The notes: generated by a model from the sequence alone, not told the origin. 64,000 nucleotides of DNA from an uncultured Klebsiella sp. (GCA_964555355.1 CAZKRY010000001.1:343177-407176); one strand, 5' to 3'. Shown: positions 11,040 through 56,484, counted from the first letter of the stretch. Numbers and translations are program-made.

Positions 11040-11059
11040 GTCGGCGGCGCAGACACACG

Positions 11060-34238: not shown

Positions 34239-36194
34239 ATGTGTGGAATTGTCGGCGCGCTTATCGGTAACGCGTTCGATCGATCGAACTTACGTTCGGC
34301 GGTGGACGCAATGAACACGCGTCTCCATCACCGCGGCCCCGACGCCGGCGACGTGTGGGTTGACGCCTCCGCTGGCCTTGCGCTCGGCCACCGACGCTTG
34401 TCGATTCTCGATCTCTCGCCCGCAGGCGCGCAGCCGATGCACTCCAAGTGTGGTCGCTATGTCATCGTCTTTAACGGCGAGATCTATAACTTCGCGTCTT
34501 TGCGCGACGAGCTTGCCGCGCGCGGAGAAATCTTTGTCGGGCATTCGGATACGGAAGTCTTGCTCGCGGGTTTTGTCGCTTGGGGTATCGAACAGACACT
34601 AAAACGCGCCAACGGCATGTTTGCGATTGCACTCTGGGACAAACGCGAACGTGAATTAACGCTGGCGCGCGACAGATTAGGCGAAAAGCCGCTGTATTAC
34701 GGAATGCATCAGGGATCGTTGTTGTTCGCCTCGGAACTCAAAGCACTGCATGCCTGGCCGGATTTCAGACCAGAGATCGATCGCGATGCGCTTACGCTCT
34801 TTCTCCGACATAACTACATTCCAGAGCCGTTTTGTGTTTATCGGGGCTTACGCAAACTGCCGCCTGCGCATTTCTTGACCGTTGGTGTCGATTCGCTCCG
34901 AGAGTTACCCGCGCCCCGACCGTATTGGTCGTTGCAAGATGCGATCACGCGTGGGCGGCAAACACCCTTCTCCGGCACACGCGAAGAAGGCGTGGAGTTA
35001 TTGGATACAACACTGCGCGAATCGGTGCGGCTGCGCATGGTGGCCGATGTCCCGCTCGGCGCGTTTCTCTCGGGCGGGATCGATTCCTCCACCGTGGTCG
35101 CCCTGATGCAGGCACAGAGCACACGCCCAATCCGCACGTTTTCGATTGGCTTTACCGTGCCTGAGTATGACGAAGCGCCCTATGCGCGCGCGGTCGCCAA
35201 ACACTTGGGCACGGACCACACGGAGCTTTACGTCAATCCGGATGAGACGCGCGCCGTCATCCCGCGCCTCCCGGCGATGTATGACGAACCCTTTGCGGAC
35301 TCATCGCAAATTCCAACCTTCTTGGTGTCCTCGCTCGCCCGCCAACACGTCACGGTCGCAATGTCAGGTGACGCCGGAGACGAACTTTTTGCTGGCTACA
35401 CACGTTATTCCGTGGCACTCGACCTTTGGCGCCGGCAACAACGTTTGCCATTGGTTGCCCGGCGTGCGCTGGCGCGCGTGTTGACCGGCATCGCTCCGCG
35501 GCAGTGGGATAGTTTGTTCAAGGTACTTGGCCCAGTACTGCCGGCGCGTCTACGTCAACCGATGCCCGGTGACAAATTGCATAAGCTCGCAGGCTTGCTC
35601 GCAATCAATGAATCGCTCGCGATGTATCGCGATTTGATTTCCCTATGGAAAGAGCCGGAGCGAGTGGTACTCGGAGGCCGCGAACCACCGAGTGTCATGT
35701 CGATTGCAGCTAACTTGCCTAACGAACTCGAGTTTGTCGAACGCATGATGGCGCTGGATACCTTGCACTATCTGCCGGGCGACATTTTGACCAAAGTCGA
35801 TCGCGCGAGCATGGCAGTAAGTCTGGAAGCGCGCGTGCCGTTACTCGATACGGAAGTCGTCGAACTCGCTTGGCGCTTACCGCAGTCATTTAAGGTGCAT
35901 CAAGGCGTGGGCAAATGGGTGCTGCGCGAGGTGCTCGCGCGCTACGTGCCGCGTAAGCTTTTTGAACGGCCCAAAATGGGTTTCGGGATCCCGATTGACG
36001 CCTGGCTGCGCGGCCCTTTACGCGAATGGGCGGAAGATCTGTTGAACGAATCGCGCTTAGCGCAAGCCGGTTTTTTCGACGCTAAGGCAGTACGGCAGGT
36101 ATGGCAGGCTCATCTATCCGGCGGCCAGAATCTGCAATATTTGTTGTGGACGATTTTGACTTTCGAGGCGTGGCGGGCCGCTTATCGGAGCTAA
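34239..36194 (+). CDS. Asparagine synthase (glutamine-hydrolysing)-family amidotransferase, second paralog
   Basis: MCGIVG N-terminus and PP-loop SGGIDSST. Paralogous to 11060..12934. Confidence 0.85.
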   Translation: MCGIVGALIGNAFDRSNLRSAVDAMNTRLHHRGPDAGDVWVDASAGLALGHRRLSILDLSPAGAQPMHSKCGRYVIVFNGEIYNFASLRDELAARGEIFVGHSDTEVLLAGFVAWGIEQTLKRANGMFAIALWDKRERELTLARDRLGEKPLYYGMHQGSLLFASELKALHAWPDFRPEIDRDALTLFLRHNYIPEPFCVYRGLRKLPPAHFLTVGVDSLRELPAPRPYWSLQDAITRGRQTPFSGTREEGVELLDTTLRESVRLRMVADVPLGAFLSGGIDSSTVVALMQAQSTRPIRTFSIGFTVPEYDEAPYARAVAKHLGTDHTELYVNPDETRAVIPRLPAMYDEPFADSSQIPTFLVSSLARQHVTVAMSGDAGDELFAGYTRYSVALDLWRRQQRLPLVARRALARVLTGIAPRQWDSLFKVLGPVLPARLRQPMPGDKLHKLAGLLAINESLAMYRDLISLWKEPERVVLGGREPPSVMSIAANLPNELEFVERMMALDTLHYLPGDILTKVDRASMAVSLEARVPLLDTEVVELAWRLPQSFKVHQGVGKWVLREVLARYVPRKLFERPKMGFGIPIDAWLRGPLREWAEDLLNESRLAQAGFFDAKAVRQVWQAHLSGGQNLQYLLWTILTFEAWRAAYRS

Positions 36195-36204
36195 GCAAGT
36201 AAAC

Positions 36205-36681
36205 CCTTCCGCGTGCGGGAGAGGGTAGGGTGAGGGTCTTCATACAACGCCACTCGACACGCTGCCCCTCACCCGGCGCTACGCGCCGGCCTCTCCCGGT
36301 GGGGAGAGGCGATTGGAATGACGCTCCTGCTGCGCGTGAGTAGCAAAAACCCTCTCCCGCATGCGGGAGGGCAGGGTGAGGGTCTTCATACAACGCCACT
36401 CGACACGCTGCCCCTCACCCGGCGCTACGCGCCGGCCTCTCCCGGTGGGGAGAGGCGATTGGAATGACGCTCCTGCTGCGCGTGAGTAGCAAAAACCCTC
36501 TCCCGCATGCGGGAGGGCAGGGTGAGGGTCTTCATACAACGCCACTCGACACGCTGCCCCTCACCCGGCGCTATGCGCCGGCCTCTCCCGGAGGGAGAGG
36601 CGATTCGATGACACTCCTGCTGCGCGGAAGTGGCAAAATAAAACCCTCTCCCGCATGCGGGAGAGGGCAGGGTGAGGGTCT
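36205..36681. repeat. Tandem array (about 3.3 copies) of a 146-bp composite REP/BIME-like palindromic element
   Basis: The catacaacgc landmark recurs at 36241, 36387 and 36533, a period of 146 bp. Each unit contains the hairpins ccctctcccgc..gcgggaggg, ccctcaccc..gggtgaggg and cctctcccggtggggagagg. The array fills the gap between two convergent genes. Confidence 0.85.
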
Positions 36682-36690
36682 TAAGGCCAC

Positions 36691-39073: not shown

Positions 39074-39285
39074 GGCAGCCGTGAGGCGTGCGAAAAACTG
39101 CTGCGGGAGAACGCGCGAGCAGGTATAAAGACTGGATGGTTGCGCGGTGCTTTTGCATATCGGTTCGGAATAGCCTATTTAGGCCCGCGGGCTTGATCTG
39201 ACGTCCCCTTGGTGATTGCGCTGCGCGCCGCTGCGTGCAGGCAGCCGTGCGAGCGGGACACAAAACATAAAACGGGAGGTAACCC

Positions 39286-40149
39286 TTGTTGACTTACAAT
39301 TGCCCCACCAGCGTTGACGAAGCCGTCGCTTTGTTGAGTGCGGGACCCACACGCCGCGTACTCGCCGGTGGCACCGATTTGCTGGTGCAATTACGCGCAC
39401 ATCGTGTGCAGGCCGACGGTATCGTCGATATCAAACGGATTCCAGAACTCAAACGCATTACGGCCGAACCAGGCGGATTTCGTGTCGGTGCGGCGGTATC
39501 GGGTGCCGAACTCGGCGAGCACCCGGCATTAAGCAAGATGTGGCCTGGGGTGGTTGAAGCCGCGAACCTCATCGGTTCGACCCAGATCCAAGGCCGCGCC
39601 AGCCTCGGCGGCAATTTATGCAATGCCTCGCCTGCCGCGGATAGCGTGCCGGCGCTGATTGCGGCGGGCGTGCGTTGCACGATAGCCGGTCCCAAAGGTC
39701 GCCGCGAGGCGCCGGTCGAAACGATTTGCACGAGTCCAGGCAAAACCAGTCTCGCCACCGGTGAATTCATCGTTGACTTCATCCTCCCGGCGCAAGCGGC
39801 ACACGGTGGGGATGCCTATCTACGGTTCATCCCGCGCACCGAGATGGATATCGCGGTCGTCGGTGCTGGTGTCTGCCTCGCGCTCGATGCAAAAGGTGTG
39901 GTGCAACAGGCCCGCGTTGCACTAGGCGCCGTCGCGCCACGCGCGTTGCTGGTGGAAGCCGCCGGTCGTGCGCTTATCGGCACGAAATTGGAACCTGCCG
40001 CAATGAGTGCGCTGGCGGCCGCCGCCAGCGCCGCGTGTGCGCCGATTAACGACAAACGCGGCACCATCGAATTTAGAACCCAAGTGGCAGGAGTCCTCGC
40101 CCGGCGCGCGGCTCAAATTGCCTATGACCGCGCAAGGAGAACCGCATGA
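39286..40149 (+). CDS. Molybdo-flavoprotein FAD-binding (medium) subunit, CoxM/XdhB-like
   Basis: FAD-binding domain of the molybdopterin dehydrogenases (LAGGTDLLVQ, ASLGGNLCNASP). TTG start with a GGGAGG ribosome-binding site. Confidence 0.8.
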   Translation: MLTYNCPTSVDEAVALLSAGPTRRVLAGGTDLLVQLRAHRVQADGIVDIKRIPELKRITAEPGGFRVGAAVSGAELGEHPALSKMWPGVVEAANLIGSTQIQGRASLGGNLCNASPAADSVPALIAAGVRCTIAGPKGRREAPVETICTSPGKTSLATGEFIVDFILPAQAAHGGDAYLRFIPRTEMDIAVVGAGVCLALDAKGVVQQARVALGAVAPRALLVEAAGRALIGTKLEPAAMSALAAAASAACAPINDKRGTIEFRTQVAGVLARRAAQIAYDRARRTA

Positions 40150-40622
40150 GCAAACATCACGTTGCCGCGAAAGTGAATGGCGACCCTGTCGAATTTTTGT
40201 GTGAAACCGAACAAACGCTGCTGGATGTTCTGCGCGATGAACTGGGGCTTACGGGTTCAAAAGAAGGCTGTGGCTCGGGCGATTGTGGCGCCTGCAGCGT
40301 GCGCGTCGACGGTCGTTTGGTGTGCGCTTGTTTGGTGCTTGGCGCCGAAGTCAACGGCTGCAAGATAGACACCATCGAAGGTGTCGCGCAGGGCGCGGAA
40401 CTTCACCCCTTACAGCAGGTCTTTCTTGAAGAGGCAGCGTTGCAATGTGGGATCTGCACGCCGGGGATTATCGTCGCGGCCAAGGCGCTGCTCGAGAAGA
40501 ACCCTGACCCATCCGAAACCGAGATCCGCTTTTGGCTTGCCGGTAACCTGTGCCGTTGCACGGGGTACGACAAAATCGTGCGGGCAGTACAGAAAGCAGC
40601 AACCGTCATGAGGAGCGCATAA
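40146..40622 (+). CDS. [2Fe-2S]-binding (small) subunit, CoxS-like
   Basis: Two Cys clusters ([11 protein letters not shown]; CGICTPG...CRCTGY). Overlaps the medium-subunit gene stop. Confidence 0.85.
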
Positions 40623-40624
40623 AC

Positions 40625-42889
40625 ATGGGCAACGAAAAGCAATTCAAGTGGGTAGGCACCCGCCCGGTACGCCCGGATGGCGTCGACAAAGTCACCGGTC
40701 AAGCGACCTATGGCGCGGACTACAATCTGCCAGGCATGTTGACCGGCCGCGTGTTACGCAGTCCGCACCCGCATGCGCGCATCAAAGCGATCGATACGTC
40801 CAAGGCCGAAGCGCTGGCCGGCGTACGCGCGGTGGTGACCGCCGCCGATTTCCCGGAACTGCCGTCGGAACTTTCCACCGGTGGTGAAGTGCCGATCAAC
40901 TTTCGTTATGTCTCGGAAAACGCGATCGCGCGCCGTAAGGTGCTCTACGAAGGTCACGCCGTCGCCGCCGTCGCCGCCTCGACCCCTGCGATTGCCGAGC
41001 AGGCGTTGGGGCTCATCAAGGTGGACTACGAAATCCTGCCGCATGTCATCAACGTGCAAGACGCGATGAAAGCGAATGCACCGGTACTGCACGACGACCT
41101 CATGACAGCCAATGTCGATCCCAAACCGACCAAGGCGTCCAACGTCGCGGCGCGCGTTGAATTTGCGCTCGGCGATATCGACAAGGGTTTCGCGGAAGCC
41201 GAGGTCATCGTTGAACGCGAATACACCACCGAAGCCGTGCACCAAGGTTATATCGAACCGCATGCCTGCGTGGCGAGCGTCGCGGCCGATGGCATGGCAA
41301 CGGTGTGGTGCTCCAGCCAAGGGCAGTTCATGGTGCGTGAATTCTGCGCTAAATTGCTGAAGCTCGAGGGCGCCGCGTTGCGCGTCATTCCGGCCGAAAT
41401 CGGCGGCGGTTTCGGCGGCAAGACCACTGTGTATCTCGAACCGCTGGCGCTCGCGCTGTCGCGTAAATCCGGCCGGCCGGTCAAGATGGTCATGAACCGC
41501 GAAGAAGTTTTCCGCGCCTCGGGCCCCACCTCGGGTTCGCATCTGCGCTGCAAAATTGGCGCGAAGCGCGATGGCACGCTCGTCGCCGGGCATCTTGAAC
41601 TCGCTTATCAAGCCGGCGCGTTTCCGGGCTCGCCGTTCGGTCCTGGCTGCATGACGGGGTTCGCGCCGTACGATATGCCGAATGCCAAGGCCACTGGCTT
41701 TGATGTGGTGTCCAATCGCCCGAAATGCGCGGCCTATCGTGCACCGGGCGCGCCGATGGCCTCTTTCGCGGTGGAATCCACGCTCGATCAACTCGCCTTA
41801 CAGCTCGGTATCGATCCGCTTGAACTGCGTCTAAAGAACGCCGCCAAAGAAGGCACGCGTGCGATCTATGGCCCCAAGTTCCCGGTCATCGGCTATGTCG
41901 AAACGCTGCAAGCCGCGAAAGCGCATCCGCACTACAGCGCGCCGTTGAAACCCAACCAAGGCCGCGGCGTTGCCTCTGGCTTCTGGTTCAACATCGGCGG
42001 CCCGTCGAGTGCGGCCGTGCATGTGAACGAAGACGGCACGGTGGAAGTCGTGACCGGCAATCCGGATATCGGGGGCTCACGCGCCTCGATGGCCATCATG
42101 GCGGCGGAGGTGCTGGGCATTGATTACGCCAAGGTCAAACCCATCATCGGGGATACCGCCCAAGTCGGCTATAGCTTCTTGACCGGCGGCAGCCGGGTGA
42201 CCTTCGCCACCGGTAAAGCAGTGTGCGATGCGGCGTCGGACGTGGTCGAACAACTACGCGCCCGCGCGGCCAAGCTCTGGAAGTGCGAGCCGGACGAAGT
42301 GGTGTGGAAAGAGGGTGCTGCCCATCCGCGCGATGGCCAAACGGATACCCGCACGGTCCTGACGTTGAAAGACTTAGCGGCAAGCTCGAATAAAACCGGT
42401 GGTCCGATTTCCGGCAAGTCGACGCAGAACGTCGGCGGCGCGGGGGCGGGCTTCGGCACACACATCTGTGATGTGGAAGTCGATCCGGAGACTGGTCGGG
42501 TATCGGTCATTCGGTATACGGCGGTACAAGACGTCGGGCGGGCAATTCATCCGAGTTATGTCGAAGGCCAGATCCAAGGCGGCGCGGTACAAGGGATTGG
42601 CTGGGCATTGAATGAGGAATACGTCTACGACGACAAGGGTCACTTGCAGAATGCCGGGTTCCTGGATTACCGAATGCCGGTGGCCTCCGATCTCCCGATG
42701 ATCGACACGGTGATGGTGGAAGTGCCGAACCCGAATCATCCGTATGGGGTGCGGGGCGTGGGTGAAGTGCCGATCGTGCCGCCGTTGGCGGCGGTGGCGA
42801 ATGCGGTGTCGCGTGCCACCGGCGTGCGCATGGCGGACCTTCCCATCTCGCCGCCGCGTTTGTTGGCGGCGCTCAACAAGAAGGGCTAG
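40625..42889 (+). CDS. Molybdopterin-binding (large) subunit of a xanthine-dehydrogenase/CO-dehydrogenase-family hydroxylase, CoxL-like
   Basis: The start is set at ATG 40625 (MGNEKQF), 2 nt after the small-subunit stop. Aldehyde-oxidase/xanthine-dehydrogenase a/b hammerhead and MoCo-binding domains. Confidence 0.85.
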
Positions 42890-42902
42890 TCGCTCAGCCA
42901 GG

Positions 42903-43151
42903 ATGGCGACCGTCGTTCTACAGCCAGGCTTTGCGCGCCGCTATACCGGCGGCGCGCAAACCATCGACGTTAACGCCCGTAGTTATCAAACGCTCATCGA
43001 GGAACTCGATGAGCGTTTTCCAGGTTTCGCCGATGCAGTCGCCGTGCGCACCGCGGTCGCGATTGATGGCGAAATTTTCCAAGATCCCTTGCTTGAACCG
43101 ATCGCACCCCATAGCGAAGTGTTTTTCCTGCCGGCACTCGAAGGCGGCTAA
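42903..43151 (+). CDS. MoaD/ThiS-like ubiquitin-fold sulfur-carrier-type protein ending in Gly-Gly
   Basis: 82 aa from the internal ATG 42903. The C-terminus is ...FFLPALEGG followed by stop, the diagnostic C-terminal GG. Sits directly downstream of the Mo-large-subunit gene. Confidence 0.5.
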   Translation: MATVVLQPGFARRYTGGAQTIDVNARSYQTLIEELDERFPGFADAVAVRTAVAIDGEIFQDPLLEPIAPHSEVFFLPALEGG

Positions 43152-45770: not shown

Positions 45771-47660
45771 TTAACGCAACGCCGGCCGCGCGATCCCGAG
45801 CTTTCTGATCCGGTAGCGCAGCGTGCTGGGATGCATATTGAGCAGTGCCGCCGCGCCGGTCGGGCCTTCGATGATCCAGTGTGCTTTTTCAAGCATCGCG
45901 CGAATATGCGCGCGTTCTACGTCTTCTAGACTGTCCGAGCTTACCAGCGTCTCGACTGGCGACGGAAGCGTAGGGTTATCGTGGAGACCGGGCAACATGT
46001 CGGCATCGACCGTCAACGTTATCCCGTCACTTAAGATAAGCGCGCGTTCGATAACATTCTCAAGCTCCCGAACATTGCCCGGCCATTGATACGCGCGTAG
46101 TCGTTGTAAGGACGCGGGATCAACCGACTGCACGCGCAAGCCAAGCTTTGGTCCAAGTTTTTCTAGCAGGTGCTGAACAAGCGCCGGGATGTCTTCGCGC
46201 CGCTCGCGCAACGGCGGCAATTGCACCGGAAACACGTTCAACCGGTAATAGAGATCCTCGCGGAAAGTTCGGTCTTGCACCGCCTGCTGCAAATCACGAT
46301 TGGTCGCGGCGATGACTCGGATATCGACCTTAAGCGGCCGTTCGCCACCCACGCGTTCAAACTCGCGCTCTTGCAACACGCGTAACAGTTTCGCCTGCAT
46401 ATCGAGCGGCAGTTCGCCAATTTCATCCAAGAAGAGCGTACCGCCGTCCGCCAATTCAAAGCGACCTTGGCGGCGCGCAATCGCACCGGTAAATGCGCCT
46501 TTCTCGTGACCAAAGAGCTCGCTTTCGAGCAAATGCGTGGGCAGCGCCGCACAGTTCACTTTGATCAGCGGCTTGTCGCGTCGCGGGCTCGCCGAATGTA
46601 TGGCGCGCGCGATGAGTTCTTTACCGGTGCCGGTTTCGCCCCATACCAGCACCGTCGCGTCGGTGGCAGCGACTCTCTCGATCCCTTTCAACAACCTAGT
46701 TAGCGCGGAACTACTGCCCACGATCTCGTCAAAGTTGTGGACGGCTTTAATTTCATCTTGCAGATATCGATTTTGGGCCTGCAAGCGGGCTTGCTCTTGC
46801 TCCATCAACACACGCGAAGTGATATCTAGAAACATCGTGCGTGTGAATTGGCCGCTCGGATCAGGTCGTGACCACCACTCGATCCACAATGGCTTGCCGG
46901 TATCTTTACGACTCAGCTCAAGCACGACGCCGCTGGTATCGACTCCGCGGCCAATCGATTCGAACGCCATCTGCAGGCGCTGCTGCGCTTCGGGAGTGTT
47001 CGGCGCCAATGATTTGCCGCGCATGCCGGCGACTTCGTCGGGGCGTATGCCAAGCACCTTTAGCGCCGTGCGGTTGGCGCGGATGAAACGCGAATCGAGA
47101 TCTTCGTGCACGTACGCGATCGGCGCTTCTTCAAAGAGATCGTCCAAGCGGGCCTCGCTTAAGCGCAGCGCCTCCTCCATGCGCAAACGTTCGAATTCGC
47201 TGGATGCGCGCGCGGCGAATATCTGGAACAAATAAAGCAACGAGTCACTATCCGGCATCGGCCGGTCGTCGAACACCGCCATATGGCCGATGACTTCGCC
47301 GGTCGCGGCGCGCAGCGGCACCCCAAGGTAACTCTCAACTCCAGGCTCGTTGGGAAAGCGCTGCGACACGCCGGAGGGGTAATGACAGAACTGGCCGCCG
47401 ACTACTTCCTCGCATGGCGTGCCGACCAATGGCCATTCAACATCGTCGAGAAAGTGATCACGCTCCCAAAAGACCACCGCGCGCACGCGCGTTCGGTCTT
47501 CGGCAAAGCGGGCGACGAAGGCATTGCGCACGCCGGTCGCAATGGCCAGGTTTCTTACTAGTTCGTGGAAAAAGGCGTCACCGGTAACGCCCGCGGTGCC
47601 TTCGAAAATCGCGCGCAGCGTTTCGAGTTCGAGCGCGGAATGGGCGGGAATGTCAGCCAT
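45771..47660 (-). CDS. Sigma-54-dependent transcriptional activator (bacterial enhancer-binding protein) with N-terminal GAF and PAS sensor domains and a C-terminal Fis-type HTH
   Basis: AAA+ sigma-54 interaction domain ([14 protein letters not shown] loop, [15 protein letters not shown]) and a C-terminal HTH ([18 protein letters not shown]). Confidence 0.85.
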
Positions 47661-47672
47661 CTGCGTGCCGGC

Positions 47673-48899
47673 TCAATGCCGGATCAACCGCACCGGAAGA
47701 TGTTTTAGCCCACCGACGAAGCTGGATTGCACGCGCTCCACCGAGCCGGTGATTTCAACGCCTGCATAACGTTCCATCAACTCTTCCATCGCGATGCGGA
47801 TTTCGACTTTGGCGAGCGGTCCGCCCAAACAAAAATGCGGTCCTGCCCCAAAACCCAAATGGAGGTTGGGGTGGCGCGTGATGTCGAACTTGTACGGCTC
47901 TTCGAACACTTCCTCATCGCGATTGGCAGACGGGAACCACAGCAGGAGACGATCACCGGTTTTGATACGGTGGCCGCGGAGTTCGGTATCGCGCGTCGCG
48001 ACGCGCATCAACGAAATCACCGGATCCGACCAGCGCACGAACTCTTCAACCCCAAGTCGTAAGCGCTTCGGATCTTCCCGCAACAACGCCATTTGCGCGG
48101 GATTCTGCAGTAACGCAAGCACCCCACCGGAAAACGCGTTGCGGGTGGTCTCGAACCCCGCAAGCATCAACTGCACGCCGTTGTGCGCGACTTGCGAGTG
48201 CGGTAGCGGCTGATCGAACACCATCGCATTGGCAAGCATCGTTAGTGGATCCGAAAACGGACAGCCTCGGCGCGCATTCGCCTGCTGCAAACTGTAGTCG
48301 AATAATTGTTGGAAACCGCAGCTCACGGTTTCGGCCGCCGAGCGACCCTGCCGGTATTCGGGATCGGTGCCGCCGATCGCCATCTTGCCCCAGCCTAGTA
48401 GTTGGTCCCAGTGTGCAGGCGGAAGTTGCAAAATTTCGCAGATCACCGCCATCGGAATTTTAACCGCCAGATCGCTCACCAAATCGATCTCGCCGTGCGC
48501 GGGTAAGCCGTCAAAGATCTTGCCGATTAATTCCTTGGTCCGAGCTTCGCCATCCGCCAATGCCTTTGGCATGAATGGCGCCGACATGACCTTACGGACT
48601 TCAGTGTGGCGTGGTGGATCAATGGTCAGCACATTCTCACCGACACCCATCGCATCACCCGCGATGGCGGCCATCTCATCATCGATAACGGGCATGACGC
48701 CTTCGCGTTCGGAGGAAAATAGTTCGGGTTCGTTCAAGATGTGTTTTAGGTCGGCGTGCTTGAACACCGACCAGTAACCGCGACCATCGGGACTCGTCGT
48801 CCAATGCACCGGATTGTCGCGCCGCATGCGGTCGAAGAGCCGATAGTACTCATCGGTGGCGAAGAACGTGGGATCGTTTAACTGATCATCAACGCGCAT
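47673..48899 (-). CDS. Cytochrome P450
   Basis: Heme-binding loop FGAGPHFCLG, ExxR (ETTR), I-helix AGFETT. The start is set at the internal ATG (MRVDDQL), 14 nt downstream of the SDR stop. Confidence 0.85.
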   Translation of the reverse strand: MRVDDQLNDPTFFATDEYYRLFDRMRRDNPVHWTTSPDGRGYWSVFKHADLKHILNEPELFSSEREGVMPVIDDEMAAIAGDAMGVGENVLTIDPPRHTEVRKVMSAPFMPKALADGEARTKELIGKIFDGLPAHGEIDLVSDLAVKIPMAVICEILQLPPAHWDQLLGWGKMAIGGTDPEYRQGRSAAETVSCGFQQLFDYSLQQANARRGCPFSDPLTMLANAMVFDQPLPHSQVAHNGVQLMLAGFETTRNAFSGGVLALLQNPAQMALLREDPKRLRLGVEEFVRWSDPVISLMRVATRDTELRGHRIKTGDRLLLWFPSANRDEEVFEEPYKFDITRHPNLHLGFGAGPHFCLGGPLAKVEIRIAMEELMERYAGVEITGSVERVQSSFVGGLKHLPVRLIRH

Positions 48900-48915
48900 G
48901 CATGTTTCTCCTGCG

Positions 48916-49665
48916 TTAACGCCCGCCGGCGACTTCGATGAAGGTGCCGATCGTGTACGACGCCGCTTCAGACAGCAACCACATAATTGCTTCCGCGACT
49001 TCATCCGCCGTTCCACCGCGTTGCATTGGTACGTTCACCTTGAGTCGATCGACGCGTTCCGGATCGCCATAACTTGCGTGAATGTCCGTGTAAATGAGTC
49101 CGGGCCGGACGGCGTTGACGCGGATGCCTTCGGTGGCAACTTCTTTGGCGAGCCCCACGGTGAAAGTATCCAGCGCACCCTTGGAGGCCGCATAGTCCAC
49201 ATACTCACCCGGCGAGCCCAGCCGCGCGGCGGCGGACGACACATTGACGATCGCGCCACCGCGCCCGCCGTAGCGCGTCGACATTCGCTTAACGGCTTCG
49301 CGCGCGCAGAGAAAGCTGCCGATGACATTGGTGGCAAACACTTCGCTCAAGCGAGCGTAATCCATGGCGTCGACCCTAGCTTGCGTGGCGGCGATGCCCG
49401 CATTGTTGACGAGCGCGTCGAGGCGACCGAAGTCACGATCGATCGAATCGAATAATTGCAATACCTCGGCTTCCTGGCTCACATCAACCCGATACGCGCG
49501 GATGGCTGCAATCGTTGTGTCGATGGATTCGCAGAGTGTGTCGGCAGACTGCTTTGCGGTGCGATACGTAAACGCCACGGCATAACCGCGCGCGACCGCC
49601 ATGCGAACGGTGGCGGCGCCGATCCCCCGGCTACCGCCCGTCACCAACAAAACCGGTCGTGTCAT
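48916..49665 (-). CDS. SDR-family oxidoreductase (classical short-chain dehydrogenase)
   Basis: TGGSRGIG cofactor motif, NNAG, catalytic YxxxK (YAASKGAL). Confidence 0.85.
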   Translation of the reverse strand: MTRPVLLVTGGSRGIGAATVRMAVARGYAVAFTYRTAKQSADTLCESIDTTIAAIRAYRVDVSQEAEVLQLFDSIDRDFGRLDALVNNAGIAATQARVDAMDYARLSEVFATNVIGSFLCAREAVKRMSTRYGGRGGAIVNVSSAAARLGSPGEYVDYAASKGALDTFTVGLAKEVATEGIRVNAVRPGLIYTDIHASYGDPERVDRLKVNVPMQRGGTADEVAEAIMWLLSEAASYTIGTFIEVAGGR

Positions 49666-49775
49666 GTGACTCGACCGCTTCTAGAAATTGCAGTCAGCGC
49701 GGAGTAATGAGGATCAACAACGCGTAATGCGCGGAGGTTTCGTCGATGACGGCGGGTATAGGCAGTTGAAACGCC

Positions 49776-49868
49776 GCCCCTCACCCGGCGCTGCGCACCG
49801 GCCTCTCCCGGTGGGAGAGGCGAATAAGTGAACCCTCTCCCGCTGGCGGGAGAGGGTAGGGTGAGGGT
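49776..49868. repeat. REP-like composite palindromic element
   Basis: ccctcacccggcgctgcgcaccggcctctcccggtgggagagg followed by ccctctcccgctggcgggagagggtagggtgaggg. Same family as the 36.2-kb array. Confidence 0.8.
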
Positions 49869-49893
49869 GGAAGACCATCCCTTCACGCCAACC

Positions 49894-50565
49894 TCAGCCC
49901 ACATGCTTCCCAAAGAACGCCAGCGTGCGCTCTTTGGCGAGCTTCGCGCTATTCGCGTCATAGCTACCGCGCTCGTCGCAGTTAAAACCGTGATCGGCCG
50001 GGTAGATAAAAATTTCAACGTTCGGCTGCGCTTTGTGAATCGTCTCGACGTCGGTCATCGGAATATGCATGTCGCGCTCGCCGAAATGCATGATGACCGG
50101 GCATTTGGCGGAGCGAGTCGCTTCCTTCGCGATGCCGCCGCCGTAGTACGCCGAAGCCGCCGTGACGCCTTTCAACTCGCAAGCCGAAAGCCAGGTCATC
50201 AATCCACCGAAACAATAACCGACGACTCCAACCTTGCCGTATTTGGCGGCGGCTTCGATCGCCGCTTGCAGATCGAGCAGACAGTGTTCGCGCTTCAAAT
50301 CTTGAAAAGCAAGCTTAATGCCTTTTTGAAATTCGGTCTGATCGGTGTAGCCAAGTTCCACATTGCGTTCGACACGATCGAAGATCTGCGGCGCGATAGC
50401 GGCATACCCATCTTTCGCATACCCATCCGCGACATTGCGGATATGGCGGTTCACACCGAATATCTCCTGGATGACCACCACCGCGCCTTTAGCGGTGCCG
50501 GTGGGCAGTGCTTCATAGGCACCGAACGAAAAACCATCTGAGGCGGTGAGTTGGCGTGAGGGCAT
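49894..50565 (-). CDS. Dienelactone hydrolase-family protein (carboxymethylenebutenolidase-like)
   Basis: α/β-hydrolase with nucleophile motif GYCFGG (DLH family uses Cys) and a C-terminal His. Confidence 0.7.
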   Translation of the reverse strand: MPSRQLTASDGFSFGAYEALPTGTAKGAVVVIQEIFGVNRHIRNVADGYAKDGYAAIAPQIFDRVERNVELGYTDQTEFQKGIKLAFQDLKREHCLLDLQAAIEAAAKYGKVGVVGYCFGGLMTWLSACELKGVTAASAYYGGGIAKEATRSAKCPVIMHFGERDMHIPMTDVETIHKAQPNVEIFIYPADHGFNCDERGSYDANSAKLAKERTLAFFGKHVG

Positions 50566-50856
50566 TGGGATCTCCTTATAAAGCGTGGGGTGTTCGATTT
50601 TGGTCTTGGTGCGCTGGGAATTGTGCGGCGTTAGTAATGCCGATGGCCCGACACTTTAGCCGGTTTCGCCTCCTACTCAACTATGCGCAGTGGTCTTGCC
50701 GGTGCGTGGAGCGATGCCACTTGGGTTGCAACCTCCGTGTTTGGGGCTTGCGGTTACGCAGCAGCCTGGGCGACGATGCGGGACAAAATAAGCGCCTTCA
50801 TTTAAGAATGCGCCTACGCAATTTCAGCACCCTTTCGCCACTTCCTGGAGGCCGCC

Positions 50857-52038
50857 ATGGAACCATTACGTGGGATCCGCGTCATTGATGTCACGACTAA
50901 CGCATCCGGTCCGATGGCCGCCGGGATGTTGGCCGATCAAGGGGCTGACGTCATCCGCATTGAAACCCTGGGTAGCGGCGATCCTTCACGGCATGTCGGT
51001 GGCACCCGTGGCGGCGTCTCGTCGTATACGGCCTATCTTAATCGCAATAAGCGCTCCATCGCGGCTGACTTAAAAAACGCGGCCTTAAAACCGTTGCTCT
51101 ACAAGCTTATCCAAACTGCCGATGTGTTTATCCAAAACTCGCGACCGGGTGCGTTGGAGCGTGCGGGCTACGGCTTCGCCGATTTGCACAAAATCAACCC
51201 GAAGCTTATCTATGTGTCGATTTCCGGATTCGGTGCCACCGGTCCCGCCGCGGGGCAGCGGGTGTACGACCCGGTGATTCAATGTGTAGCGGGTTTTGCA
51301 ACCGCGCAAGGCGCGGGCGGCGAACCGGCACTGGTCAAGACCATCGCAAGCGACAAGGTGGCGGCGCTTACTGCCGCGCAGGCCGTCTCGAGCGCGTTGC
51401 TTGCGCGCGAACGCGGGCTTATTGGTGGTCATCACGTTGAACTCTCGATGCTTGATGCGAGCCTCGCCTTCCTGTGGCCGGATATTTATTGGAACCATGG
51501 GTTTGTCGGCGAGGAAGGCGTTACCCGTAAACCGCTGATTGCGGATTTCTATCGGTTGCTGAAAACCGCGAACGGTTTCATCACGACGATTATTGTTGGC
51601 GATGGCGAGTTCGCCGGCGCGTGTCGCGCGTTCGGCACCGAACACATGCTGAGCGATCCGCGCTTTAAAACGCTTACCGATCGTTTCGGCAATTACGCCG
51701 ATATGCATGCCGCCTTCCAAGCGAAAGCGGCAACCATGCAAGCGGATGATTTGATCGCGCGCTTGATGCGCGAAGATGTACCTTGCGCCAAGGTCAACGC
51801 GCTTGATGATGTATTCACCGATCCGCGCGTCACGCATCGCCAAAGCATTGTTGAATACGACGACCCGCGCGCTGGCCGCATGCGCGCGGCACGTGCACCC
51901 GCTATTTTCGACGGCGAACCCTGCCCGATCCGCCGGCCTTCGCCAGCGCTCGGCGAACACACGGCGGAAGTGCTGCAGTCGGTAGGTTGTAGCACGGAAG
52001 AGTTGGCCTCACTGCGTAAATCGGGTGCGATTAATTGA
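50857..52038 (+). CDS. Family III CoA-transferase (CaiB/BaiF family)
   Basis: N-terminal LRGIRVIDVTTNASGPMAAGMLADQGADVIRIE signature. The catalytic Asp region is conserved. Confidence 0.85.
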   Translation: MEPLRGIRVIDVTTNASGPMAAGMLADQGADVIRIETLGSGDPSRHVGGTRGGVSSYTAYLNRNKRSIAADLKNAALKPLLYKLIQTADVFIQNSRPGALERAGYGFADLHKINPKLIYVSISGFGATGPAAGQRVYDPVIQCVAGFATAQGAGGEPALVKTIASDKVAALTAAQAVSSALLARERGLIGGHHVELSMLDASLAFLWPDIYWNHGFVGEEGVTRKPLIADFYRLLKTANGFITTIIVGDGEFAGACRAFGTEHMLSDPRFKTLTDRFGNYADMHAAFQAKAATMQADDLIARLMREDVPCAKVNALDDVFTDPRVTHRQSIVEYDDPRAGRMRAARAPAIFDGEPCPIRRPSPALGEHTAEVLQSVGCSTEELASLRKSGAIN

Positions 52039-52052
52039 CAAGATCGTTTACT

Positions 52053-52209
52053 CCCTCTCCCGCGACGCGAGAGGGCAGGGGTGAGGGTCTTCGTGCGGAG
52101 CCGGTCGAAGCGCTGCCCCTCACCCGGCGCTGCGCGCCGGCCTCTCCCGGTGGGAGAGGTTTTTTCCCTTCTCCCTCTCCCACTTCGCAGGAGAGGGGAG
52201 GGGGTGAGG
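52053..52209. repeat. REP-like composite palindromic element (two adjacent modules)
   Basis: ccctctcccgcgacgcgagagggcaggggtgaggg ... ccctcacccggcgctgcgcgccggcctctcccggtgggagagg ... ccctctcccacttcgcaggagaggggagggggtgagg. Confidence 0.8.
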
Positions 52210-52252
52210 ACCAAGCTTTTTGGAAAGTAGAAATAGATTTAAAGGAGACCCC

Positions 52253-53341
52253 ATGCATCTCGGATATTTCATGATGCCGTTGCATCATGCGGACAGCGAT
52301 TACCATCAAACGTTGAGCGACGACGTCGAAGCCATCGTGCTGGCCGACGAACTAGGTTTCACGGAAGCGTGGGTTGGCGAACACTATTCAGCAACGGTCG
52401 AGCAGATCACCTCGCCCCTACTCTTTCACGCCAATCTCATCGCGCGCACCAAGCGTATTAAATTTGCAACCGGCGTAATCTGTCTACCGCAGTATCATCC
52501 GGCCGTCATTGCCGGGCAGGCCGCGATGTTCGATCACTTGAGCAATGGGCGCTTCATCATGGGCATTGGCCCCGGCGGCTTGCCGTCGGATTTCGCGTTG
52601 TTTGGCGTCATGAACAAAGATCGCCAAAAAATGGCCGAAGAATCCATCGATCAAATTCTGACCATGTGGTCGACTTCGCCGCCGTACAACCTCCGAGGCG
52701 AGCATTGGACCATCGACATGACCGCGTGGACGCATCATGACATCAAGATGGGTTACATCCCGAAGCCGTTGCAACAACCGCATCCGCCGATCGCGGTCTC
52801 GGCCGTCAGCCCGAACTCCGGCTCGTTGAAATACGCAGGCAGCAAAGGCTTTATTCCGGTATCCGCAAACTTCATCGCCGAATGGAACTTAAAGACCCAT
52901 TGGCCGACATACGCCGCCGGCGCGCAAGCTGCCGGTCACACACCGAAGAGCGCCGACTGGCATGTGGCGCGCAGCATTTTTGTCGCGGACACGGATGCAG
53001 AAGCCGCCGAGTTCGTTGCCCAACCCGGCGCGGCTTACGGCTATTACTACGAATATCTGTTCAAGATTTTCGATCGCACTAACTTTCGCGGACCTTTCGT
53101 GCCGAATCAGGGTGACGATCCGATGAGCTTGACGCCGACGGCGCTCCGCGAAGCTTGTGTTATTCACGGCAGTCCGGAGACAGTCGCGCGTCAGATTTTA
53201 GGATTGCGTGAGCGTATCGGTGATTTCGGCACCTTGCTTTACGCCGCGCACGATTGGGTCGATAAGCCGGCGATGAAACGTTCGATGCAATTGATGGCGC
53301 AGGAAGTCATGCCGCGCGTCAATCGCGCGTTAGCCGCTTAA
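52253..53341 (+). CDS. LLM-class (luciferase-like) flavin-dependent monooxygenase/oxidoreductase
   Basis: The start is set at ATG 52253 with an AAAGGAGA ribosome-binding site 5 nt upstream. TIM-barrel LLM signature regions (FTEAWVGEHY; ICLPQYHP). Confidence 0.7.
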   Translation: MHLGYFMMPLHHADSDYHQTLSDDVEAIVLADELGFTEAWVGEHYSATVEQITSPLLFHANLIARTKRIKFATGVICLPQYHPAVIAGQAAMFDHLSNGRFIMGIGPGGLPSDFALFGVMNKDRQKMAEESIDQILTMWSTSPPYNLRGEHWTIDMTAWTHHDIKMGYIPKPLQQPHPPIAVSAVSPNSGSLKYAGSKGFIPVSANFIAEWNLKTHWPTYAAGAQAAGHTPKSADWHVARSIFVADTDAEAAEFVAQPGAAYGYYYEYLFKIFDRTNFRGPFVPNQGDDPMSLTPTALREACVIHGSPETVARQILGLRERIGDFGTLLYAAHDWVDKPAMKRSMQLMAQEVMPRVNRALAA

Positions 53342-53356
53342 GACCAGTCTTAAACG

Positions 53357-54388
53357 ATGCGCGCCAAACGACTCGGTCTCATGCTGTGGCCCGTGCCGGG
53401 CCTCGAGGCCGGGTTCGACCGCGGCGTGTGGGCCGAACAGGCCGGATACGACGACCTATGGTTGGCCGATGCGGAAGGACTGCAAGATCCGATTGCTTTG
53501 GCTGCGGCGCTAGGCGTAGCGACCAATAAGGTGCGCCTCTGTACGGGGGTGGTGCCGGTGTTCAACCGGCCGCCGCCGGTACTCGCGACCGGCGTGGTTG
53601 CTGCTGCCGAGCGCGCTCCGGGGCGTTTCGTCCTTGGCTTGGGCGCTTCCACGGGCAACATGGTCGATCGCTGGTACGGGCTCAAGTACGACAAACCACT
53701 GACCCGCGTGCGTGAAACGGTAGCGCTTCTGCGTCAGATCTTGGGCGGTGAGAAAACCAATTTTGAAGGCATTACGCTGCGCAGCCAGGGCTTCAAGTTA
53801 CCCGCGCTGCCGAGCGAGCCGGTACCCATCATGCTCGGCGCCATCGGGCAGAAAATGCTGCAGTTGGCAGGTGAGATCGCCGATGGCGTGGTGTTGAACG
53901 ATTTCACGCCCCCAGACCGGATGGGTTACGCGCTCGAGCAGTTAGATATCGGCGCAAAGCGTGTGGGCCGACGCGTGGAAGACTTGGAAATCGTCAAACG
54001 GCGCGCGCTCAAAATTGCCGAGACGCCCGTTGAACAAGCGCAGGCGCATACGTACTTTCGCCAACACTTGGCGTTCTATGGATCGGCTGCGGCGTATCAA
54101 GAAATCATGCTGCAATTGGGTTACCGCGAAGCAGTGCGATCGTTACGCGAAGGTTACGCGACGCGCGATCGCGCGCGCATCGCGTCCGCCATTCCGGATG
54201 AGATGGTGCCGAGAATTTTTACTTCCGGCACCGCCGCGCATTGCCAACAGTCCGTGCGCGCCGATTTCGCGGCGGGTGTCGACACTATCGTGATTAGCCC
54301 TCAGGCGAGTGAGGCGGCAGCATTCGCACACACAGCGGAGATTTTTAGTGCTGCGTGCGAACTCAAGAGTGCCTCCGCACATTCATAA
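53357..54388 (+). CDS. LLM-class flavin/F420-dependent oxidoreductase
   Basis: Luciferase-like fold (GYDDLWLADAEGLQDP...; VLGLGAS). 15 nt after the upstream LLM gene. Confidence 0.65.
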   Translation: MRAKRLGLMLWPVPGLEAGFDRGVWAEQAGYDDLWLADAEGLQDPIALAAALGVATNKVRLCTGVVPVFNRPPPVLATGVVAAAERAPGRFVLGLGASTGNMVDRWYGLKYDKPLTRVRETVALLRQILGGEKTNFEGITLRSQGFKLPALPSEPVPIMLGAIGQKMLQLAGEIADGVVLNDFTPPDRMGYALEQLDIGAKRVGRRVEDLEIVKRRALKIAETPVEQAQAHTYFRQHLAFYGSAAAYQEIMLQLGYREAVRSLREGYATRDRARIASAIPDEMVPRIFTSGTAAHCQQSVRADFAAGVDTIVISPQASEAAAFAHTAEIFSAACELKSASAHS

Positions 54389-55350
54389 CGAGGATCATTG
54401 GTTTGGGCGCAAGACTTTCGATTGATCTAAACGACTGCCGCAAATTCGCCGTCGGCGTCAAACGCCCGGAAGATGTGGTAGTCAGCCGCGACGGCACGGT
54501 GTGGATTTCGGATCAGGCAAGTGCCTGCGCGCGGGTGAGCCCGGATGGTACCTTCACCCGCATTGGCCGCGCGGGCGGGGCGCCAAACGGAATAAATCTC
54601 GATCTCGAGGATCGTGTGTTGATTGCGAATTTCGGCGGACCGGAAGATGGGCACGGTCCGTTGCAACGGCTCGATCCGAGAACCGGCACGGTGACTACGT
54701 TGTGTGATTCGATCAACGGTCGCCCGCTATTCGGCGCGAACTACCCGCTGGTGGATGGCCGAGGCCGCGTGTGGTGCTCGCATTCCACGTTCGGCCCGTT
54801 GGATGCCGCATGGGCCGGCCAGCACGACGGATCGATTTTCCGCGTTGACGGAGGTGCGGTTACCGTCCTTGCGGACGGCATTGAATTTGCAAACGGCATC
54901 GCTTTCGATGCCGAAGATAAATATCTCTACGTCTGCCAAACCACGGCATGCAATGTCGTTCGCTTTCCAATCAACGCCGATGGCACGCTAGGCCGCGCGG
55001 AGCGCTATGGGCCAAAGCTCGGCTTCACGAATGACGAAGTGCAACACCTACGTCCGCTCACACTCGAACAGCGCAGCCAGCTTGGACCTACCGACGGCTG
55101 CGGTTTTGACGCCGAGGGGAATTTGTGGGTGACCTTGGTGCTTGCCAACAAGGTTGTCGCCATCACGCCCAGTGGAGAGGTAGTTACGGTGCTCTCCGAT
55201 CCGACGGGTAAACTGATGCGCAATCCCACCAATGTCACGTGGGGTGGGCGCGACATGCGGGATTTGTATATCGGCAGCGTAACTACCGATTACGTCGTGC
55301 ATGCGCGCAGCCCAATTCCGGGCATGCGGATGTGGCATCAACGGCATTGA
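54355..55350 (+). CDS. SMP-30/gluconolactonase/LRE-family six-bladed beta-propeller protein (lactonase-like)
   Basis: DAEGNLWVT (DxEGxLW) and NG/DG propeller motifs. The ORF-track start overlaps the upstream gene by 34 nt, so the true start is probably slightly downstream. Confidence 0.6.
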   Translation: MRTQECLRTFITRIIGLGARLSIDLNDCRKFAVGVKRPEDVVVSRDGTVWISDQASACARVSPDGTFTRIGRAGGAPNGINLDLEDRVLIANFGGPEDGHGPLQRLDPRTGTVTTLCDSINGRPLFGANYPLVDGRGRVWCSHSTFGPLDAAWAGQHDGSIFRVDGGAVTVLADGIEFANGIAFDAEDKYLYVCQTTACNVVRFPINADGTLGRAERYGPKLGFTNDEVQHLRPLTLEQRSQLGPTDGCGFDAEGNLWVTLVLANKVVAITPSGEVVTVLSDPTGKLMRNPTNVTWGGRDMRDLYIGSVTTDYVVHARSPIPGMRMWHQRH

Positions 55351-55373
55351 GTGCCATGAACGTAGCGAGGTTG

Positions 55374-55502
55374 CCCCTCACCCGGCGCGCTGCGCCGGCC
55401 TCTCCCGGTGGGAGAGGCGAATTCACTCAGTTTTCCCGTGAAGTGGAAGATATAAAAGCGCTCTCCCTCTCCCGCGAAGTGGGAGAGGGTAGGGGTGAGG
55501 GT
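55374..55502. repeat. REP-like composite palindromic element
   Basis: ccctcacccggcgcgctgcgccggcctctcccggtgggagagg ... ctctccctctcccgcgaagtgggagagggtaggggtgaggg. Confidence 0.8.
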
Positions 55503-55540
55503 CTTCTCTCAATGCATCGTTCCTTCAAAAGAGTTTCATC

Positions 55541-56482
55541 ATGAGCCATGACCGCCAATTCACCCCGCGCGACGATCACTTTCATTTCGACGAAATGGGC
55601 GACGATTGGTGGGCGACGGAAACGTCATGGTTTTCTTTTCATCATCCGGAACGCAAACTCGGCGGCTGGTTCTACACCATGGCGCGGCCGAACATCGGCA
55701 CCATCGCCGGGGGCGCATGGGTATGGGACGACCGCGCTTATCTGCCGTGGGAAGTACTGTATTCAGCCAATTACTCCGCGCAGGAATTACTGCCCAACAC
55801 CGATCTTGCGGACTGCAAACTACCGAACGGCGTTTCGATCAAGGTGCTCGAACCGTGCACACGCTATGCGCTCGGTTACGACGATGGTGATCGGTTTAAA
55901 GCCGATCTCATTTTCCACGCAGTCATGCCGCCCGAACCATTGACGGCGGTGGGCTCGACATTTGGCAGCGCGCATCACTTCGATCAATTCGGACGTGTGA
56001 CCGGCAACCTCGTCTTACATGGTGAGGTCATCGCGCTAGACTGCATTGGCATGCGCGATCGAACCTGGGGACGGCGACCGGAAGACCGGCCGCGCCAAGC
56101 GGCGTATGTCACCGGCGCGGCCAACGCCGACACCGGGTTTCTCGCGGTTACGCAGGGCAAAGTGCCGCGAGACGAAGTGGCCTATGGATTTCTGCGGCGC
56201 GACGGCCGCAACGTACCGCTCGCGAGCGGCGAGCGGCAGGTTGAACGCGATCCCAAAGAAGGTTGGATCACACGCATCACTTTGCTTGCGCGCGACACGC
56301 AAGGCCGCGAATTGCGCGCGGAAGGCGTGCCGGTCAGCCGCATTATTTTGAACCGGCACACCTTCATCGATATCAATAGTTTGATTCGCTGGGAGCACGA
56401 TGGCCTAGTTGCATGGGGCGAAGATCAGGACATGTGGCCGGTGCATCGTTGGGCGCGCCGCCAGCGCGAGGCACGCGGCTAG
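55541..56482 (+). CDS. Hypothetical protein (313 aa) encoded immediately upstream of an acyl-CoA ligase
   Basis: No recognisable motif. The N-terminus is His/Trp/Asp-rich. The stop lies 2 nt before the ligase start. Confidence 0.4.
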   Translation: MSHDRQFTPRDDHFHFDEMGDDWWATETSWFSFHHPERKLGGWFYTMARPNIGTIAGGAWVWDDRAYLPWEVLYSANYSAQELLPNTDLADCKLPNGVSIKVLEPCTRYALGYDDGDRFKADLIFHAVMPPEPLTAVGSTFGSAHHFDQFGRVTGNLVLHGEVIALDCIGMRDRTWGRRPEDRPRQAAYVTGAANADTGFLAVTQGKVPRDEVAYGFLRRDGRNVPLASGERQVERDPKEGWITRITLLARDTQGRELRAEGVPVSRIILNRHTFIDINSLIRWEHDGLVAWGEDQDMWPVHRWARRQREARG

Positions 56483-56484
56483 CA

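Follow-up and report, generated by a model that had tools for sequence, protein, structure and literature searches.

The 64-kb stretch of DNA from an uncultured Klebsiella sp. (GCA_964555355.1 CAZKRY010000001.1:343177-407176; hereafter the window, along which all positions are counted) contains an operon for a CoxM/CoxS/CoxL-type molybdenum (Mo) hydroxylase that ends with a gene for a small ThiS/MoaD-like protein with a C-terminal Gly-Gly. The association of this small gene with coxL, which encodes the molybdopterin-binding large subunit, is robust and widespread; the mechanism behind it is one that we infer. Our preferred reading, put forward tentatively, casts the small protein as a clade-specific sulfur carrier for maturation of the Mo center of CoxL, most likely through supply of its terminal sulfido ligand. 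It is similarly a working proposal that the four genes form one self-contained module composed of three hydroxylase subunits and a clade-specific ThiS/MoaD-type carrier. The family name already exists in public annotation, where RefSeq calls the small protein a 'MoaD/ThiS family protein'; what is new here is an enzyme-linked ThiS/MoaD carrier whose partner is a molybdenum hydroxylase. The literature searched gave no account of xanthine-oxidase-family operons with a MoaD-like gene.

Linkage of the Gly-Gly gene to coxL

A genome scan restricted to one genome per species returned at least 573 relatives of the small protein, and the best 80 of these supply the locus counts given below. The 3′ end of a coxL gene is located no more than 175 nucleotides (nt) upstream on the same strand in 70 of the 80 loci, and no more than 100 nt upstream in 61; the spacer in the 70 loci ranges from 2 to 175 nt, with a median of about 20 nt. 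Among the remaining loci, coxL is 2.5–4 kb away in five and is not present within 10 kb in five. Sampling was also performed in the reverse direction, with CoxL orthologues picked regardless of the small gene, and the small gene was directly downstream in all six, at one of which the public gene call had overlooked it. The most distant of the close relatives (44–46% identity) likewise follow coxL, and the link persists at 32–36% small-protein identity in Ruegeria, Sinorhizobium, and Mesorhizobium. The linkage between coxL and the small gene is thus far beyond chance. An earlier interpretation of this DNA, made from the sequence alone (the sequence-only reading), was to be given up if the small gene were not conserved downstream of coxL in related genomes; the gene is conserved there.

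Every coxL-linked locus checked has a large subunit of the xanthine oxidase family as the partner, and adjacency to a tungsten aldehyde:ferredoxin oxidoreductase (AOR) was not found in these loci. Orthologues of coxM occupy the equivalent position in most related loci, and the coxS orthologues in these loci are 65–88% identical to the one in the window. Several alphaproteobacterial loci, including L009, L011, L021, L023, and L084, contain coxL and the small gene without neighboring coxM or coxS. Because the pair is kept where the other two subunit genes are not nearby, it is the Mo subunit in particular to which the small gene is linked.

Plasmids were searched with tblastn, which located the module in cultured organisms. 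It is present on the megaplasmid of Ruegeria pomeroyi DSS-3, where CoxL and the small protein are 58% and 32% identical, respectively, to those of the window. The R. pomeroyi module occupies NC_006569.1 459056-462912 (SPO_RS21915-21930), with SPO_RS21930 as its small gene. The module is also present on pSymA of Sinorhizobium meliloti strains 1021 (near 1.15 Mb), 2011, and Rm41, as well as on plasmids of Mesorhizobium, Shinella, Rhizobium, and Marivivens. The clade, which keeps a private ubiquitin-fold Gly-Gly gene beside its Mo subunit, is abundant among Proteobacteria from freshwater, sea, and soil. More than 8000 CoxL matches are present in the database at E≤1e-50, not all of which necessarily belong to the clade.

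The loci differ in several details. Many alphaproteobacterial operons are arranged as coxM-coxS-coxL2-coxL1-small gene, with an additional coxL paralogue at ∼5.2–7.6 kb of each locus (L043, L045, L046, L053, L056, L059, L060, L062, L067, L068, L073, L076, L077, and L079), and carry only one small gene per two large subunits. In L036 an extra coxL (10645-12762) follows the small gene. In a Pseudomonadales/Azotimanducaceae lineage, an 80-amino-acid variant of the small protein (MARVVFPDHL...) is encoded by genes detached from coxL in L052, L054, L057, L061, L070, L071, L072, L078, and L080; a PfkB-family kinase gene is located directly 3′ of this variant in six loci and ∼3 kb away in L057, and PhoX and HAD hydrolase genes are often near. 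The plasmid of Mesorhizobium sp. AR07 (L088, 709-8207) carries the module directly after genes for a tusA-family sulfurtransferase, glp (MoeA-like), fdhD, and mobA. FdhD is the formate dehydrogenase cofactor sulfurtransferase, and these genes, found in the only locus seen with cofactor or sulfur-transfer genes near, are probably part of an adjoining formate dehydrogenase cluster. At L094 (5783-6013) the public gene call is a 62-amino-acid antisense open reading frame (ORF), and tblastn finds the MoaD-like gene on the forward strand; from this missed call, the family is probably under-annotated in metagenome gene catalogues.

The Gly-Gly protein and the hydroxylase

The small protein matches the Pfam ThiS/MoaD family PF02597 with 24.0 bits against a cutoff of 22.5 (E=5.9e-5), and the same match is precomputed on most of its homologues. 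Close database relatives number 159 (44–100% identity), and the family comprises 477 representative clusters at E≤1e-10, nearly all of which are stand-alone proteins of 80–85 amino acids. The family alignment contains the motif AVAIDGEIFQDP and a C-terminus of the form SEVFFLPxxEGG, in which the terminal Gly is invariant. The exact C-terminal end is GG in 73 of the 80 loci and AG in 4. An exact-sequence look-up with the small protein of the window gave no match.

An AlphaFold2 model of the small protein is predicted to adopt a β-grasp fold (predicted local distance difference test score, pLDDT, 85.9) with a disordered tail. Foldseek comparison of this predicted model with the PDB placed CysO first (3dwg_C and 4n6e_B; template modeling [TM] score 0.85), followed by MoaD from several species, SAMP1, and Urm1, with a probability of 1.0 for the matches to all four proteins. 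When PDB sequences were searched with a profile, CysO-type carriers again ranked first. Among curated sequence models TIGR01682 (moaD) is the closest, and the small protein scores 15.7 bits to it against a cutoff of 66.15; weak matches to this model occur in 20 of 25 family members, the best with E=1.6e-6. The small protein belongs to the ThiS/MoaD sulfur-carrier superfamily as a diverged member and is distinct from canonical MoaD. The ThiS/MoaD assignment, the free Gly-Gly end, and the β-grasp fold anticipated from the sequence alone are thus in agreement with the Pfam match and the structure prediction; the description of the carrier as 'fused' to the operon is not, since the small protein is encoded by a separate gene.

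No natural fusion of CoxL with the small protein was present among the best 150 of the 477 representative clusters. One 407-amino-acid protein (P0325) was considered as a fusion and set aside, since an upstream short-chain dehydrogenase is run into the small gene, probably as a gene-calling artefact; long ORFs in L043 and L076 were dismissed as frame artefacts. Tails of 15–40 residues beyond the Gly-Gly, unconserved among close relatives, occur in P0253, P0272, P0278, P0280, P0293, P0311, P0312, P0313, and P0315. These tails could reflect lost stop codons, sequencing errors, or precursor segments requiring proteolytic removal.

The Pfam domains of all three subunits bear out the assignment of the operon to the CoxM/S/L-type xanthine-oxidase family. 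The CoxL-like protein contains Ald_Xan_dh_C (PF01315) and two molybdopterin-binding domains, MoCoBD_1 (PF02738) and MoCoBD_2 (PF20256), with E values from 2.5e-27 to 1.7e-68. The two [2Fe-2S] clusters and the FAD (flavin adenine dinucleotide) are assigned to separate subunits, as in CoxMSL-type heterotrimers: the CoxS-like protein contains Fer2_2 (E=3e-31) and Fer2 (E=3e-8), and the CoxM-like protein contains FAD_binding_5 (E=5.5e-43) and CO_deh_flav_C (E=1.9e-20), with every NCBIfam equivalog score for CoxM under its cutoff. On sequence grounds the enzyme is an ordinary-looking molybdenum hydroxylase of an uncharacterised clade within the family.

The best match of CoxL among solved structures is the α subunit of 4-hydroxybenzoyl-CoA reductase (1rm6_A, E=1e-102), followed by 6-hydroxypseudooxynicotine dehydrogenase and then by CO dehydrogenases. 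Its active-site loop, AAYRAPGAP, aligns with AFRGYGAPQ of Desulfovibrio gigas aldehyde oxidoreductase and AYRAPGR of Kdh. The Gln in HQGYIEP, the GGGFGGK segment, the YRAPG loop, and the catalytic Glu are conserved in the coxL genes that adjoin the small gene, and this conserved signature of catalytic Glu, Gln, and YRAPG loop implies that the enzyme needs a sulfido ligand (Mo=S).

Three specific enzyme identities were evaluated and rejected. Form I Mo-Cu CO dehydrogenases have the loop VAYRCSFR, in which the Cys binds Cu; inspection of the CoxL loop, proposed in the sequence-only reading as a way of recognizing this enzyme, revealed Ala in place of the Cys, and the score to TIGR02416 is 304 bits against a cutoff of 991. 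No coxD, coxE, or coxF accessory genes were found in the operon or in related loci. Xanthine dehydrogenases have a substrate-binding Glu directly after GGGFGGK (Glu802 in the bovine enzyme), where the CoxL of the window has Thr; the XdhA model NF043082 gives 460 bits against 780 and TIGR02965 gives 227 against 850. 4-Hydroxybenzoyl-CoA reductase (HcrABC, PDB 1rm6) shares the three-subunit architecture and is the nearest solved homologue of CoxL, but the module scores far under the equivalog cutoffs for the α (482 vs 995 bits), β (114 vs 405), and γ (171 vs 258) subunits. HcrB carries a [4Fe-4S] insertion, and because CoxM matches the β-subunit model only in two separate stretches, it probably does not have this insertion. 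To our knowledge, no MoaD-like gene accompanies hcr operons.

The genes that flank the module vary in nearly every lineage and include VOC and PhyH family members (window), a TPP (thiamine pyrophosphate) enzyme, a GMC oxidoreductase, a racemase-family protein, SnoaL, and others. Because the neighbors differ in this way, no substrate can be inferred from them.

A linked activation system was sought among the neighboring genes. The 1269 ORFs of the 80 loci were clustered, and 182 module-flanking ORFs were scanned with Pfam. Only CoxL, the small protein, CoxM, and CoxS are recurrent across the 80 loci, and no flanking family occurs in more than five loci. In over 90 loci, none of the recurrent flanking families is a ThiF-type E1, rhodanese, XdhC, MoaE, JAMM peptidase, or cysteine desulfurase; none of MoaE, MoeB, and MoaA recurs beside the module among the 182 flanking ORFs, nor does a CysM-like protein, Mec+ JAMM peptidase, MoeZ, adenylating ligase, or E2/E3-like partner recur in the neighborhoods examined. 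A Pfam scan of the predicted ORFs across the window likewise found no XdhC/CoxF, E1, rhodanese, MoaE, JAMM, or cysteine desulfurase. The search for a cognate E1 or desulfurase that the sequence-only reading had called for therefore returned none in the window and no recurrent one among related loci.

Possible roles of the Gly-Gly protein

If the small protein is a sulfur carrier for CoxL, maturation may proceed as follows. The small protein would be made together with CoxL, given the shared strand and short spacer in 70 of the 80 loci. A housekeeping E1 of the MoeB/ThiF/MoeZ type would then adenylate its flexible Gly-Gly tail and convert it to a thiocarboxylate in trans, with a cysteine desulfurase as the source of sulfur; the fold, the invariant terminal Gly, and the lack of a linked E1 together point to loading in trans. 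The thiocarboxylate would then give its sulfur to the molybdenum cofactor bound for CoxL, where the likeliest target would be the terminal, cyanolysable Mo=S ligand, which would arise when the O of Mo=O is exchanged for S. The mature enzyme would act as an ordinary Mo/2x[2Fe-2S]/FAD hydroxylase.

Delivery of the sulfido ligand, a possibility also raised in the sequence-only reading, is ranked first on four grounds: the small gene is linked to one CoxL clade and not to Mo enzymes generally; MoaE and MoeB never recur with the module, unlike in the tungsten-AOR/MoaD clusters (PMC1779556); the active-site signature implies a need for Mo=S; and the module does not contain XdhC, the usual sulfuration and insertion chaperone (PMC2997495). 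Genes for chaperones of the XdhC/PaoD/CoxF type resemble the small gene in being enzyme-specific, located directly after the Mo-subunit gene, and co-transcribed with it, and their products function in both cofactor sulfuration and insertion (PMC2997495). However, XdhC is a cofactor-binding protein of ∼30–35 kDa, whereas the small protein is a 9-kDa β-grasp protein of unrelated fold. In the known sulfuration pathway a cysteine desulfurase persulfide acts on the XdhC-bound cofactor (PMC2997495), whereas a thiocarboxylate route would be new. The most specific version of the proposal, in which the C-terminal thiocarboxylate is itself the direct donor of the terminal sulfido in a route independent of XdhC and NifS, with the carrier docked on the Mo subunit, is in our estimate unlikely.

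Several observations weigh against a sulfur-carrier role in CoxL maturation. No linked E1, rhodanese, or desulfurase was found in the window or in the more than 90 loci, and because no activation gene is linked, sulfur loading is entirely something that we infer. We know of no precedent for a thiocarboxylate as donor of a terminal Mo=S. XdhC homologues may be encoded elsewhere in these genomes. The SEVFFLPxxEGG C-terminus resembles that of Escherichia coli MoaD, DEVAFFPPVTGG, so a role in molybdopterin synthase is conceivable. The protein ends in AG at 4 of the 80 loci, and a few database members have non-conserved tails that follow the Gly-Gly. In the Pseudomonadales/Azotimanducaceae lineage, the small gene is either 2.5–4 kb away from coxL or lies where no coxL occurs within 10 kb.

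A second explanation casts the small protein as a MoaD isoform linked to the enzyme. It would serve molybdopterin synthase as an additional small subunit, pairing with the housekeeping MoaE and MoeB to provide the dithiolene sulfurs and so ensure enough molybdopterin when the hydroxylase is expressed, in the manner of the MoaD beside tungsten AOR. We regard this as possible but doubtful. The MoaD-like C-terminus, the presence of MoaD structures among the top Foldseek matches, and TIGR01682 as the closest curated model (with its weak matches to 20 of 25 members) are consistent with such an isoform, and moaA is located 2 kb upstream in one locus (L036). A precedent exists in the MoaD genes that immediately neighbor those for AOR (Iyer, Burroughs & Aravind 2006, PMC1779556), where a stand-alone, GG-ended β-grasp gene is also located beside the gene for one oxidoreductase's pterin-binding subunit, set apart from the general cofactor operon in a cluster that is apparently mobile. 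In Aromatoleum aromaticum, aorD and aorE are named as putative W-cofactor maturation factors; the purified enzyme does not contain the MoaD-like product as a subunit, and a role of this product in cofactor maturation is presumed (PMC6365974). For the AOR-linked copies, too, a function is yet to be proven. The AOR clusters often carry MoeB, MoaE, or MoaA, whereas none of these recurs with the present module, and in over 90 loci MoaE and MoeB are not recurrent. The small protein scores 15.7 bits, far under the 66-bit MoaD cutoff, and its link is restricted to one CoxL clade. In R. pomeroyi, transposon mutants of the chromosomal moaE/moaD pair (SPO3633/SPO3634) have fitness phenotypes (PMC10041152; PMC4809877), so the megaplasmid copy is an extra paralogue, and it did not render moaD dispensable under the conditions used, although it was possibly not expressed then. 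The module resembles the AOR-linked MoaD or the XdhC-type accessory genes most, yet belongs to neither group.

A third explanation requires no sulfur: the small protein would be a non-catalytic fourth subunit or an assembly chaperone on CoxL that holds the apo-subunit open or plugs the substrate funnel. Some β-grasp proteins, such as TmoB in toluene monooxygenase, are simple enzyme subunits (PMC1779556), and such a role would agree with a strict link to coxL while coxM and coxS can lie elsewhere, with unlinked sulfur-activation genes, and with the members that have an Ala-Gly end or a tail after the Gly-Gly. However, an invariant terminal Gly, with 73 of 80 proteins stopping exactly at GG, is the pattern of C-terminal activation and is needless for a scaffold; the predicted tail is disordered, like those of sulfur carriers; and no CoxL fusion was found in the clusters searched. 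We consider this explanation unlikely.

The small protein could also be a carrier or ubiquitin-like modifier for chemistry linked to the substrate or product, such as formation or salvage of a thio-metabolite in the style of CysO, QbsE, or BexX partners, or for conjugation to CoxL. Its top structural matches are CysO of cysteine biosynthesis and a CysO used in 2-thiosugar formation, and the genes next to the S. meliloti module are annotated as an aminothiazoline-carboxylate hydrolase, a racemase-family protein, and an M20 hydrolase. Activation of CysO-type carriers takes place in trans and relies on a shared MoeZ-type E1. The Mycobacterium tuberculosis CysO (Rv1335) and related actinobacterial sulfur carriers (PDB 3dwg, 4n6e) resemble the small protein in structure (TM 0.85), in an N-terminal R-x-x-T-G-G segment, and in their GG end; the small protein differs in that the identity is only 20–22%, that no CysM, Mec+, or BexX-type partner is near, and that the genomic partner is a molybdoenzyme. 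Because a partner enzyme (CysM-like, JAMM, adenylating ligase, or E2/E3-like) recurs in no neighborhood and the flanking genes change in almost every lineage, this role is improbable.

That the gene is simply the housekeeping moaD, located downstream of coxL by happenstance, is largely refuted: membership in the ThiS/MoaD superfamily and the GG end would fit, but R. pomeroyi DSS-3 carries another moaD (SPO3634) on its chromosome beside moaE, the module is located on accessory megaplasmids in cultured strains, the small gene is adjacent to moaE in no locus examined, and the score is far under the moaD model cutoff (15.7 vs 66.15 bits).

In bacteria, hydroxylases of the xanthine oxidase family play a central part in the degradation of N-heterocycles and aldehydes, and correct cofactor sulfuration is the usual bottleneck when these hydroxylases are expressed in a foreign host. 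If the small protein delivers sulfur to the Mo center, it would represent a maturation route not seen before; if it is instead a spare MoaD or a subunit, the fourth gene should still be included when these enzymes are expressed. The presence of the module in R. pomeroyi DSS-3 and S. meliloti 1021 makes a direct genetic test possible.

Operon layout and surrounding genes

The positions of the ORFs and the tight coupling of the three subunit genes agree with the sequence-only reading (Table 1), as does the LEGG-stop at the end of the fourth. The coxM-like gene is preceded by a Shine-Dalgarno sequence (GGGAGG, 39274-39279) located 6 nt 5′ of its start codon and overlaps coxS by 4 nt (ATGA). The coxL start codon is 2 nt past the coxS stop; the longest ORF would begin at a GTG at 40550, which was judged to be an over-extension. 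The small ORF starts 13 nt past the coxL stop.

Table 1. Genes of the hydroxylase operon
Gene	Position	Strand	Product length and ends
coxM-like, FAD-binding medium subunit	39286-40149	+	287 aa (amino acids); TTG start
coxS-like, small subunit with two [2Fe-2S] domains	40146-40622	+	158 aa
coxL-like, molybdopterin-binding large subunit	40625-42889	+	754 aa; ATG start (MGNEKQF...)
Small ThiS/MoaD-like ORF	42903-43151	+	82 aa; ends ...PALEGG-stop

No Moco riboswitch or other RNA element was matched by Rfam anywhere in the window, and promoter and terminator scans gave counts equal to the shuffle expectation.

The operon had been described as having the small gene 'instead of canonical accessory genes'. 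This holds for the operon and for the XdhC/CoxF-type genes sought in the window as a whole, with the exception of a MoxR-like/VWA_CoxE-like pair 35 kb away, which is of the types found as CoxD and CoxE in CO dehydrogenase clusters. In the segment 2064-5147, the MoxR-like AAA ATPase gene is located at 2064-2921 and the VWA_CoxE-like gene at 2911-4095, followed by an unassigned 348-amino-acid ORF. The pair is treated as unrelated to the operon, given this distance and its failure to co-travel with the module in related loci.

Upstream of the operon, a same-strand glycan-biosynthesis cluster (7238-36194) contains genes for three DegT-type aminotransferases, an ABC-2 exporter pair, a radical SAM protein, methyltransferases, a sulfotransferase, FemAB/GNAT-like proteins, several GT4 glycosyltransferases, and two asparagine-synthase-like amidotransferases (11060-12934 and 34239-36194). 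The GC content is ∼0.50–0.52 at 12–18 kb of the window and ∼0.59 elsewhere. A tandem array at 36201-36682 (146-nt unit, 3.3 copies, 93% matches) is located in the intergenic region between an asparagine-synthase-like gene and an mscS-like gene; its unit contains GC-rich palindromic segments, and the repeated 'ORFs' called there are translated repeat. Downstream of the operon, a catabolic-looking cluster (45771-58146) adjoins a gene for a GAF-PAS sigma-54 activator (45771-47660) and includes genes for a P450, a short-chain dehydrogenase, a dienelactone hydrolase, a family III CoA-transferase, two luciferase-like monooxygenases, an SMP-30/gluconolactonase-like protein, a DUF7064/7065 protein, and an AMP-dependent ligase; its proximity to the hydroxylase module is not conserved elsewhere.

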